Shown here one piece after another: positions 27,135-30,100 of a stretch of 64,000 bases of DNA (positions within the stretch are counted from its first letter, which is position 1; every line of letters begins with the position of its first letter). This DNA comes from a virus. The position numbers and the translations under genes are program-made. Location: IMG/VR virus record IMGVR_UViG_3300033692_000004, positions 1 to 64,000 of that record. The stretch is one strand, 5' to 3'. The notes beneath the pieces were generated by a model that saw only the letters and a program-made list of their open reading frames with translations, had not been told where the DNA came from and did not search any database.

Positions 27135-30100
27135 TTAGATACAATCAGGTATATTATTAATATCTTCTTTAGTAATATTATTCTGTAGTAGCATATTGGT
27201 AATATCTTTACCTTGAACTTGTTCAGTAGTACTAACACTACTCTTATTAGCTTTAGTCATAGAATATTGTTTAATTTTGTTCTGACTAAATAAAGTTTCA
27301 GGCACAGTCATATTTATATTATATTCTACTACATGATTATGAATACCTAACTTATCAGTTAATTCATACTCAAAACCATGTTCACTTTTACCTACAAATT
27401 TATACAGATTATATTCACCATCTTGCTCGTGTGCAATAAATTTAACTGGTTCTTTACGATCCATTTCTTTGATAACAAAATCATCTGATTTAACTGTATC
27501 AGGGTTAACTGTAAAACCAATTATACGTTTACCTTGAGTGTTTCTAGTAGACACATTACTGAAATCATCTTTAACTCTAGGTACAAATGCAGCATTTCTA
27601 TACATATTTCTATAGAATTGCTCTATAAAATTAGTTTGATCGCCATAGTCGTACATTCCAGGGCCTATTCTGTTATATAAATAGTCACTTAATGTATTAC
27701 CATTAGAATCCCTTATAACGCTTAAATAAGCCTCTGTAGGTACTAAATGAGAGAACCCATTCGGACCGAAAGATAACCCCGCTGTAAAGTAGCTATATTT
27801 AATCAAGTCTAGTCCCAACTTATTAAGACTTTCATTAGTACTATTCAATAAGTCTAACCATGCATTCTGTACATCATTACGTTGGCTATCAGTAAAGCTA
27901 CCAGTATTATCAAATACTAATCTATCTGTAGGATTATCATTATCAGCGGCTTCATATCTTAATCTCTTTAGTAAAGCGTTATCCTGTAGATCAGAATTAT
28001 TATCAATAGTTTTAAATACTCTTAATGGTAAATCCATTATAATATCCTGTGCTTCAGATATATCAAAGAAGTCAAATCCTGATATTGTATAGGTCACTAT
28101 ATTATCATTAATAGTATTTAATTGCTTAGCACTTAATCTATTAAATTTATGGTTAGCTCTAATCTCTTGCTTAATACTATCAAAGAATTCATTCCGATAT
28201 GGGAACATTTGGTTTAGTATAGTCTCAAGAGGTAGCTCAATGCCATATCTGTTAAAATAAGTCTCTAAGTTAGTATCAGTATCATTCTCAGTTACAAATT
28301 CTTCCACACCATCAATTAAGAATCGCTCATCTCTAATATCAGCTCTTGCATTCAGCATTACTTCAGCATCTGCTAATGTTGGACCCAAAGGTTTAGTATC
28401 AGCTTGTGTAGCCTGGATAAGCTTACCTAATGCCTTTGCAGAGGCCTTATAACTATTATAAGCTATAAGAACATTAGACTGTAATTCAGTATTAATATCA
28501 GTACTTCCAACTGCATCGAACATGTCTTGAGTATTCAAATTAGGTGTATCAGCATTTAAGTCTACATTCAGTGAGTTAGCTACATCTTTTATTACTGAAT
28601 CTTCACTAATATCTTCAGTAGCAATTCTATTCTGAATGTGCTGAACTACTGGCTGATTTACAAAGCTAGAGGCGGTAGCGATATCATAACCTGTAGCTAG
28701 TATTAATGAAAATAAATCAGAGGTTTCTGTTGTATATCCAATATCAGAAGCTACAGGATCTTTTGCATTATCCATAACAGCAGCTTGTGGCTCTGCAAAA
28801 TTCTTAGTAATAAGCTTATTAGGTACCTTTATTTCCTTTAAGGTCTTAGAGCCATCTTGTTTTGTTACGACCTCAAACTGAGTAACGGCTTTTTTCTGGC
28901 TGATAGACACCTCGGTTTTATAATCAAATCTAACAGGTTGCTTTAGTGACAAGTTAGCATTTTGTCTAAGGGCATGGTGTGCATTGTGTATAGAAGCAAT
29001 ACCTTTAAGTTGAGTACCTACCATATTTCGCTTAGCCATTACATCATTAGACATCATATCATATACATCTAATTCCTGACCTTCCGTAGCTGTTTTATCC
29101 CTAAATAAACCTGCTAAGTCTTTCAGGTAATCAAAACCACCAGGCGTTAGAATGCTAGGCAATGTGGCTGGATTTCTAAGAACCCCAAGCATTATATCAA
29201 TCTTAGCATTATCTCTAGCTCCCTTGGATTGATCTGACCAAGGCTTTTCTAAATCATATTTATCTACCTCATACGTAGTACTAGTTACGTTCTCAGTAAT
29301 TGTACTTGGTAAATATTTAATCTCATCATATAATTCTTGTTCACGAGAATCTAATTCTTCATTATTAGCAGCCTTGTTATATACAGTGCGTACTTGGCTG
29401 TTGCTTGTAATGTAGCCACGCTCACTAAGTTCTTTTACTATACCAGAATAATCAGACTCAGATTTACGCTTAAAAGACTTCATCATTACATACATCTTAT
29501 CTACATCAAAGTCACTACCTGAGATAGTTGTGATTTCAGCAGGTAACATAATAGCTCCTCCAGATTCTAACGGTAAGAACCCTACTACTTTTAGAGGTAG
29601 CATAGAGTATTTATCCTCTGTAGGAATACGATATCCAATCATATCTAATAACTCAGGTGCTTTCTGCTCAACCTCGGTAAAGTTAATATTTCCATCTGAA
29701 TCTACAAAATCTTTATAGAACTCTTTTGACCAAGCTGGTAATAATACTTCAGCATAATCTAAACCAGTATCTTTTATAATACCTTTAACAATTAAGTTTT
29801 TAAAATCTACCGTCTCTGGAAATAGTTCTGACGAATTAGGGTTATATTCTACTTCGGCTGTTTTAAGAATTTTATCAACAATTTCTTCTATAAGATCTCC
29901 TGAATCTCCTATCACAGTTAAAATAGATACTAAAATATCTTCATTATCTTTAGCAAAACTATACTCAGAGTCCGACATTCCATACTCAGATAGTATCTCG
30001 TTATCAAAATCTCTACCGTCTGATATAGTGCTATCTTCTTTACCTGTAAAAATTTCAGAAACCTCTATTAATTTTGAAGTATCAAAAATAATATCATTAT

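Follow-up and report, generated by a model that had tools for sequence, protein, structure and literature searches.

We analysed a 64,000-nucleotide stretch of viral DNA (positions 1 to 64,000 of IMG/VR record IMGVR_UViG_3300033692_000004; hereafter the window), in which a preliminary description made from the letters alone had flagged a peptide segment, GYRIPT...GSDFDVDKM. This segment is very probably the catalytic metal-binding loop, with the last strands of the second double-psi beta-barrel (DPBB2), of a single-chain, two-barrel DNA-dependent RNA polymerase (RNAP) of the crAss-like (Crassvirales) virion family. The assignment rests on homology, motif conservation, predicted fold and genomic context, from which we infer catalysis, packaging, ejection and processing. 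The segment lies in a giant open reading frame (ORF) which, judged by its sequence, is a ~2100-aa N-terminal effector and protease part fused to a C-terminal crAss-type virion RNAP. When the whole ORF was searched with phmmer against all PDB chains, the sole match was 6VR4_A (E = 5.2e-33). This chain is gp66, the virion-packaged DNA-dependent RNAP of the crAss-like Cellulophaga (baltica) phage phi14:2 (10.1101/2020.03.07.982082).

27135..39470, minus strand: giant ORF of 4111 aa, uninterrupted (ORF list and translation)
29493..29636, minus strand: flagged segment GYRIPT...GSDFDVDKM, residues 3279-3326, assigned to the last DPBB2 strands and the metal-binding loop; aligned to GYRIPNQ...GSDFDIDKM of gp66
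29499..29513, minus strand: DFDVD (D3320, D3322, D3324), predicted Mg2+-coordinating triad, with Val at position 4

The minus-strand translation of window 29400-29720 contains LDMIGYRIPTEDKYSMLPLKVVGFLPLESGGAIMLPAEITTISGSDFDVDKMYVMMKSF and agrees letter for letter with the peptide quoted in the preliminary description; the interval given for it there, 29490-29630, falls a few bases short at both ends. GYRIPT corresponds to residues 3279-3284, RIPT to residues 3281-3284 (window 29619-29630) and DFDVDKM to residues 3320-3326 (window 29493-29513). D-x-D-x-D occurs once in the 4111-aa protein, as DFDVD. The distance from the arginine to the first aspartate is 39 residues, against 35 in Escherichia coli beta-prime, as had been counted, and the E. 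coli string cited there is exactly residues 424-470 of the beta-prime chains in the PDB. The giant ORF contains neither intron, intein nor in-frame stop.

Kinship with gp66 and the two-barrel fold

The phmmer match to gp66 comprises two stretches (query 2668-3100 on gp66 871-1264, and query 3271-3708 on gp66 1326-1777); the alignment spans both barrels and pairs DFDVD with DFDID of gp66. Over the flagged peptide, GYRIPTEDKYSMLPLKVVGFLPLESGGAIMLPAEITTISGSDFDVDKMYVMM was aligned with GYRIPNQGQSSNDPLQIVGILPEAMGDTIVAYTEIPTKTGSDFDIDKMYVML, the gp66 side reading GYRIPNQ...GSDFDIDKMYVML. A profile of the barrel region (A2, an alignment of eight intact sequences) matched gp66 1227-1397 in the PDB at E = 3.9e-26; gp66 was its only match, with no beta-prime chain at E-values up to 10.

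The crystal structure of gp66 comprises one chain with two DPBB domains and a Connector (1095-1238) between them, a bridge helix at 1529-1559 and a trigger loop at 1598-1636. RNA synthesis requires each aspartate of 1361-DFDID-1365, and position 4 of this motif is Ile or Val in all crAss-like phage polymerases (10.1101/2020.03.07.982082). The enzyme transcribes phage DNA and early genes; virion packaging, ejection into the host and early-gene transcription are known for phi14:2 only. Some phages encode the polymerase together with its neighbours as one huge polyprotein that includes a zincin-like protease, and a zincin-like protease has been noted in gp65 orthologues (10.1101/2020.03.07.982082). 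The preliminary description had missed that this enzyme family is already described, and that its structure, mutants of its active site and its part in early transcription have been published.

The window protein fits the traits reported for gp66 and its kin: two DPBBs, DFDxD, Ile or Val at position 4, and fusion, together with a putative bridge helix and trigger loop. It shares the core sequence homology, has all three aspartates with Val at position 4, and is encoded in the transcription block of a Crassvirales genome, adjoining a gene for a gp49/gp67-type subunit. With identities of <=45%, it adds a new and divergent member to an established polymerase family of solved structure. By homology to gp66, D3320, D3322 and D3324 would chelate the catalytic Mg2+, and the enzyme would be packaged in the virion, ejected into the host with the DNA and transcribe the early genes.

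The layout of the polymerase was derived from alignment to gp66 and from an AlphaFold2 model of residues 2650-3650, aligned with 29 homologues (alignment A1); model confidence is given as pLDDT (predicted local distance difference test).

30711..31163, minus strand: DPBB1, beta-like partner barrel, ~residues 2770-2920, aligned to gp66 ~954-1094, upstream of the Connector; N-terminal boundary approximate
30252..30710, minus strand: Connector equivalent, ~residues 2921-3073, aligned to gp66 ~1095-1238, pLDDT mostly 54-88; boundaries approximate
29466..30251, minus strand: DPBB2, beta-prime-like barrel, ~residues 3074-3335 including an inserted module, from profile A2 and model secondary structure; boundaries approximate
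30195..30248, minus strand: Lys-rich strand KSRVTKQKIAGGSFVQAS, residues 3075-3092, first beta-strand of DPBB2
28716..29102, minus strand: region equivalent to bridge helix and trigger loop, ~residues 3457-3585, aligned to gp66 ~1526-1640; approximate, from alignment only

Query 2921-3073 falls on the gp66 Connector and is flanked by beta-rich regions, which gives two DPBBs in one chain, with the psi-loop topology taken over from gp66. The Connector, of ~150 aa, would thereby join DPBB1 to DPBB2, and the bridge helix and trigger loop would follow downstream, as in gp66. The region of the latter two contains a conserved MDNAKDP (residues 3566-3572) and is helical in the model, with the individual elements mapped approximately. 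DPBB1 bears a conserved TDAQAY as well as K2843 (QPIKPF), K2864 (HKNSEF) and K2911 (SAVKTG). K2911 is invariant and aligned to K1079 of gp66, while K2843 and K2864 occur in at least 90% of 30 sequences. DPBB1 may face DPBB2 across the cleft, with these lysines contacting the substrate.

A Lys-rich strand upstream of the flagged loop had been tentatively attributed to the partner barrel. The strand exists, 245 rather than ~260 residues before the first aspartate, and the attribution was wrong, as both alignment and model place it in DPBB2. KSRVTKQKIAGGSFVQAS pairs with gp66 N1239-S1256, directly past the end of the Connector (gp66 1238), and therefore opens the same beta-prime-like barrel that carries DFDVD. 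In the model, residues 3081-3091 within it form a strand (E432-442), and K3080, G3085 and G3095 are invariant at this site in the eight-sequence alignment.

The AlphaFold2 model had a mean pLDDT of 69 and a predicted template modelling (TM) score of 0.68; pLDDT was 67-93 in DPBB1, 61-84 in DPBB2 and below 50 in the insert (3107-3233). A Foldseek search of the PDB with this model returned 6VR4_A first (E = 3.2e-32, probability 1.0, TM 0.60 over 1031 columns), followed by QDE-1 and then by weakly matching beta-prime chains, which bears out the two-barrel architecture for which structure prediction had been suggested as a check.

The QDE-1 matches (7y7p and 7y7t) are below significance, with E = 0.04-0.05, probability 0.63-0.72 and TM 0.22-0.23. 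Their rank directly after gp66 raises the alternative of a two-barrel polymerase that is chiefly RNA-dependent, like QDE-1. In the published analysis, too, gp66 is structurally closest to QDE-1, termed a DNA/RNA-dependent polymerase (10.1101/2020.03.07.982082). However, the similarity of the window protein to QDE-1 is non-significant, transcription of phage DNA and early genes has been demonstrated for gp66, and the window derives from a double-stranded DNA phage with the same gene layout. We therefore consider a chiefly RNA-dependent enzyme highly improbable.

Among the Foldseek top 50, the chains after 6VR4 and QDE-1 are mostly of beta-prime or Rpb1 type, at non-significant E-values of 0.3-1.6, and Pfam RNA_pol_Rpb1 has no match in the giant ORF. 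With hhalign, the A2 profile was aligned to the E. coli beta-prime 47-mer over 35 columns at 34% identity (KVVGFLPL-ESGGAIMLPAEITTISGSDFDVDKMYV side). This recovered the register proposed in the preliminary description (FLP/FEP, G.AI.L, DFD.D.M) at weak significance (pairwise E = 0.008, probability 4.8%). As there is no significant sequence match to beta-prime, the link to it runs via the gp66 structure; the resemblance noticed at the outset is real, resting on this structural bridge and unproven by sequence.

The flagged loop had originally been taken as a sign of a beta-prime-type two-barrel enzyme rather than an N4/T7-type single-subunit virion RNA polymerase. The architecture of the window protein does look like that of the giant virion polymerases of N4-like phages, which are also fused to zincin and ADP-ribosyltransferase (ART) domains (PMC5512222). 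Yet no T7/N4-type polymerase domain appeared in the Pfam, PHROG and PDB search results for the giant ORF, the model retrieves two-barrel enzymes only, and the capsid, muzzle and cargo genes of the window are crAss-type, not N4-type. Together with the homology to gp66, these results support the two-barrel identification, and we put the probability of an N4/T7-type enzyme close to nil.

The aspartate triad in homologues and the module in DPBB2

Loss of the aspartates in homologues from related phages had been named as a finding that would speak against a catalytic loop. We found the triad kept wherever the gene is a phage polymerase. In a collection of 5.8 billion proteins, identity of the homologues to the polymerase core did not exceed 41%; over the barrel region, the closest relative, P0112, reached 45%. 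A tblastn search against phages gave 138 records, mostly crAss-like and ~30% identical; those with annotation are called 'putative RNA polymerase'. Y3280, R3281, P3283, D3320, D3322, D3324 and K3325 are invariant in the eight aligned intact sequences.

Forty-six homologues have the YRxP anchor. The D-x-D-x-D motif is intact in 17 of them (DFDVD in eight, DFDID in seven, DYDVD and DFDYD in one each), and three read GSGFGIDE. For one, P0100, the script misplaced the anchor, and its true site is DFDID. In the other 25, the gene call breaks off within the motif, after GSD or GSDFD (e.g. GSDFD|KLSMSK*); calls ending within the DFDxD codons are found among P0009-P0031, P0050, P0073 and P0086-P0101. 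In the one case checked in the DNA (L004, 11400-12700), an ORF for a LAGLIDADG endonuclease lies between GSDFD| and |VDKLYIML. This insert, located exactly at the catalytic motif, is probably a self-splicing intron; the frame resumes with VDKLYIMLPEF, so splicing would restore DFDVD. Introns, inteins and disruptions within the DxDxD motif of crAss-like polymerases have been described (Yutin et al., 2021; PMC7886860). Many other gene calls of homologues end at query 3107-3109, the site at which the window protein contains an additional module.

29766..30158, minus strand: acidic module of ~130 aa, residues 3105-3235, in a DPBB2 loop; mobile domain

Most homologues are without the module, their coordinates being contiguous across query 3107-3233. 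An exhaustive phmmer (HMMER) search with the module found 16 proteins (best E = 2.8e-13). It is C-terminal in the giant zincin-plus-RNAP polyproteins P0123 and P0127. P0129 and P0126 have it at the barrel position seen in the window protein, and small free-standing proteins contain it as well. Modelled alone with its own alignment, it reached a pLDDT of 75.9, with no Pfam or PHROG match and no fold match in the PDB (best E = 4.3) or BFVD (best E = 0.37). An intein was rejected: the module starts without Cys, Ser or Thr and ends without His-Asn, and its homologous copies are ordinary domains elsewhere.

Of the 13 other module copies examined, twelve have Q-x-x-L-F at their end (QLSLF in six of them), and the copy in the window has SSELF. 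The Q-x-x-L-F end resembles QL[SD]LF, the pentapeptide that binds the bacterial sliding clamp (beta-clamp). A speculative and rather unlikely idea is that this module lets crAss-type virion polymerases, or the cargo proteins that accompany them, dock on the host beta-clamp or another host hub; in the window protein it would then have been taken into the active-site barrel, as an insert that regulates or inhibits the enzyme.

The length of the loop at the insertion site also varies in P0006, P0100, P0112 and P0129, all of which keep the triad. P0112 has a different insert at the same loop (residues 291-355); its match to a GNAT acetyltransferase was under threshold (E = 0.0019) and was dismissed. 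The different insert in P0112 suggests that this DPBB2 loop is a preferred place for domains to insert. Nothing on the architecture could be learned from L003, the contig of P0112, whose coverage is low and whose ORFs are fragmented.

A homologue of another kind is found outside phage genomes. On a 789-kb contig (L005, 10001-15349), a crAss-type polymerase homologue with GSGFGIDE is located among bacterial housekeeping genes (MutS2, PNPase, EF-G, MscL and HU). An 86% identical, intact ORF of 2898 aa with GSGFGIDE is present in the metagenome-assembled genome (MAG) MGYG-HGUT-03813 of an uncultured gut Bacteroidales (L007, 2620-11316). The Bacteroidales homologue may have been domesticated and lost its catalytic activity; a search of the literature for inactive bacterial copies of crAss-type polymerases yielded nothing specific.

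Could the window protein likewise be a catalytically dead descendant of a crAss-type polymerase, retained only for a structural or cargo role in the virion? Dead versions of the fold exist, namely P0022-P0024 and the copy in the Bacteroidales MAG, with GSGFGIDE in place of GSDFDIDK, and the window protein has its DPBB2 interrupted by ~130 aa. Against this, the three aspartates, the lysine that follows them, Y-R-x-P and the near-invariant lysines and glycines of both barrels are all intact, and the insert occupies a loop of variable length in triad-keeping relatives. A dead descendant is thus very unlikely.

Several points nevertheless weigh against a functional polymerase or its placement in the two-barrel class. 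It is uncommon for a catalytic barrel to hold an insert of ~130 aa, which might alter activity. Two of the three aspartates are missing from P0022-P0024, so membership of the family alone gives no guarantee of activity. The confidence of the model is moderate, and falls below a pLDDT of 50 in the DFD loop (model residues 672-674). The barrel boundaries were carried over from gp66 by alignment, and the psi-loops and the cleft are predictions from the gp66 crystal structure. Lastly, the likeness to beta-prime and QDE-1 is non-significant by sequence and weak by fold.

The N-terminal half and the genomic context

Pfam and PHROG scans of the undivided 4111-aa protein gave nothing useful, and the ART-PolyVal domain was detected only when the protein was scanned in segments. 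The polymerase part begins at about residue 2140 and is preceded by the following regions.

37632..39173, minus strand: N-terminal region, ~residues 100-613, resembling the crAssphage 'RNAP associated protein fused to zincin protease' (KP06_gp45)
34548..35009, minus strand: ADP-ribosyltransferase domain of polyvalent-protein type, residues 1488-1641 (YYHGG ... GKGFYF), Pfam PF18760 ART-PolyVal
34071-34409, minus strand: module of ~110 aa, residues 1688-1800, 44-69% identical to segments of otherwise different metagenomic proteins (P0113-P0117)
33129..33899, minus strand: zincin-like metallopeptidase region, ~residues 1858-2114, with the HExxH motif HEAFH at 1915-1919 (window 33714-33728)

In tblastn searches against phages, region ~100-613 gave E-values of 1e-10 to 3e-8 at 21-24% identity. 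The PF18760 match (E = 5.5e-9) scored 37.4 bits, above the Pfam cut-off of 31.2. The zincin region has a weak match to Tox-MPTase4 (E = 0.014), yet is homologous to the corresponding region of the polyproteins P0123 and P0127 and to crAss 'zincin protease' fusions. The 4111-aa fusion may be a polyvalent cargo protein, probably cut up by its zincin-like protease. By the analogy with T4 Alt argued in PMC5512222, the ART domain may modify proteins of the host as infection begins. Relatives have other N-terminal effector domains instead: NADAR plus cpYpsA, DUF7831, or ART. The module at 1688-1800 is far better conserved than the remainder of the giant protein, and the proteins that share it include P0114, which also has DUF7831 and an AlkB-like domain, and P0116, which has cpYpsA.

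The giant ORF is located downstream of crAss-type virion genes on the same strand.

62295-63785, minus strand: Crassvirus major capsid protein (Crass_capsid), E = 7e-113
59275-60513, minus strand: auxiliary capsid protein (crAss_AuxCP)
43967-47749, minus strand: muzzle protein (crAss_MUZ), E = 6e-166
42601-43860 and 41617-42579, minus strand: cargo-protein-like ORFs (crAss_CARG1)
23250..27125, minus strand: ORF of 1291 aa downstream of the giant ORF, orthologue of the crAss001 gp49-type 'RNA-polymerase subunit'

Tail-fibre-like proteins are also encoded on the minus strand with the capsid, muzzle and cargo genes. By tblastn, the 1291-aa ORF matched 'putative RNA-polymerase subunit' genes at 87% coverage and E = 1e-54; it also matched phrog_37651, a virion structural protein. 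The plus strand carries a block of replication and nucleotide-metabolism genes at 1-23000 (UDG, RtcB, RNR, Thy1). Within it, a free-standing ORF for a GIY-YIG endonuclease (window 13434-14258, plus strand) may be a homing endonuclease, though the polymerase gene is uninterrupted. At window 14-4804 (plus strand), adjacent ORFs have weak matches to glutamine amidotransferase and clearer ones to amidoligase_2 and ATP-grasp (RimK-like), beside a UDG-family gene. The combination of glutamine amidotransferase, amidoligase, ATP-grasp and UDG is seen in phage DNA base-hypermodification clusters.

The GC content of the window is ~30-37%, and no tRNA genes were found in it. A megablast search of the 24 kb around the polymerase gene against the GenBank phage collection gave no match. 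The window represents a divergent Crassvirales lineage, whose closest relatives include a contig from TARA Oceans. Given the origin of this contig and its similar layout, the phage of the window is probably marine. Intact and intron-free, its 4111-aa ART/zincin/RNAP fusion is a handy natural construct for studies of polyprotein processing. The insert in the barrel and the aspartate-less gut Bacteroidales homologue raise small questions that leave the reading of the flagged loop unaffected.

Comparison with known systems

The likeness to cellular polymerases lies in the segment around E. coli RpoC 424-470, with which the window protein shares R-x-P-T, alternating hydrophobic strands and D-F-D-x-D-x-M. 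It departs from beta-prime in having GSDFDVD instead of NADFDGD, i.e. Val for the universal Gly at motif position 4, in the longer spacing (39 against 35 residues), and in having both barrels in one chain encoded by a single ORF. Neurospora QDE-1 and the RNA-dependent RNA polymerases of eukaryotic RNA interference also have two barrels in a single chain with a Connector between them, and QDE-1 is the second-best fold match. Identity to QDE-1 is 8% (E = 0.04), and its role is in RNA silencing, in contrast to the early transcription of phage genes by crAss-type enzymes.

With the polyvalent proteins (PMC5512222), the window protein shares the combination of ART-PolyVal, a zincin-like peptidase and a virion RNAP in one giant polypeptide. 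In N4-like phages, a giant virion RNAP is fused to zincin metallopeptidase and ART domains, and injected effectors have been proposed to jump-start transcription (Iyer et al., 2017; PMC5512222). The polymerase in the window is of the unrelated two-barrel type, and the shared ART/zincin/RNAP architecture is therefore convergent.

Closer parallels are the fused RNAP polyproteins of other crAss-like phages, which are huge single ORFs that join a zincin-protease protein to a DxDxD polymerase (Yutin et al., 2018, as given in the preprint; PMC7886860). ART-PolyVal, which the window protein has, is not general among them. The metagenomic polyproteins P0123 (4051 aa) and P0127 (3704 aa) have the same order as the window protein, zincin then RNAP; their mobile module is C-terminal, whereas that of the window protein is inside the catalytic barrel.

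Finally, the homology between gp66 and the window protein extends through both barrels, the Connector and the region of the bridge helix and trigger loop, and the two have an active-site loop of one form, GSDFD[IV]DKMYVM. Their genes share the position downstream of capsid, muzzle and cargo genes and adjoin a gene for a gp49-type RNA-polymerase subunit. The two proteins differ in that their identity is just ~20-30%, and in length: gp66 has 2180 aa, and the window protein, with 4111 aa, has ~2100 extra N-terminal residues comprising a gp65-like region with zincin, plus ART. They differ also within DPBB2, where the ~130-aa module of the window protein takes the place of ~60 residues in gp66.

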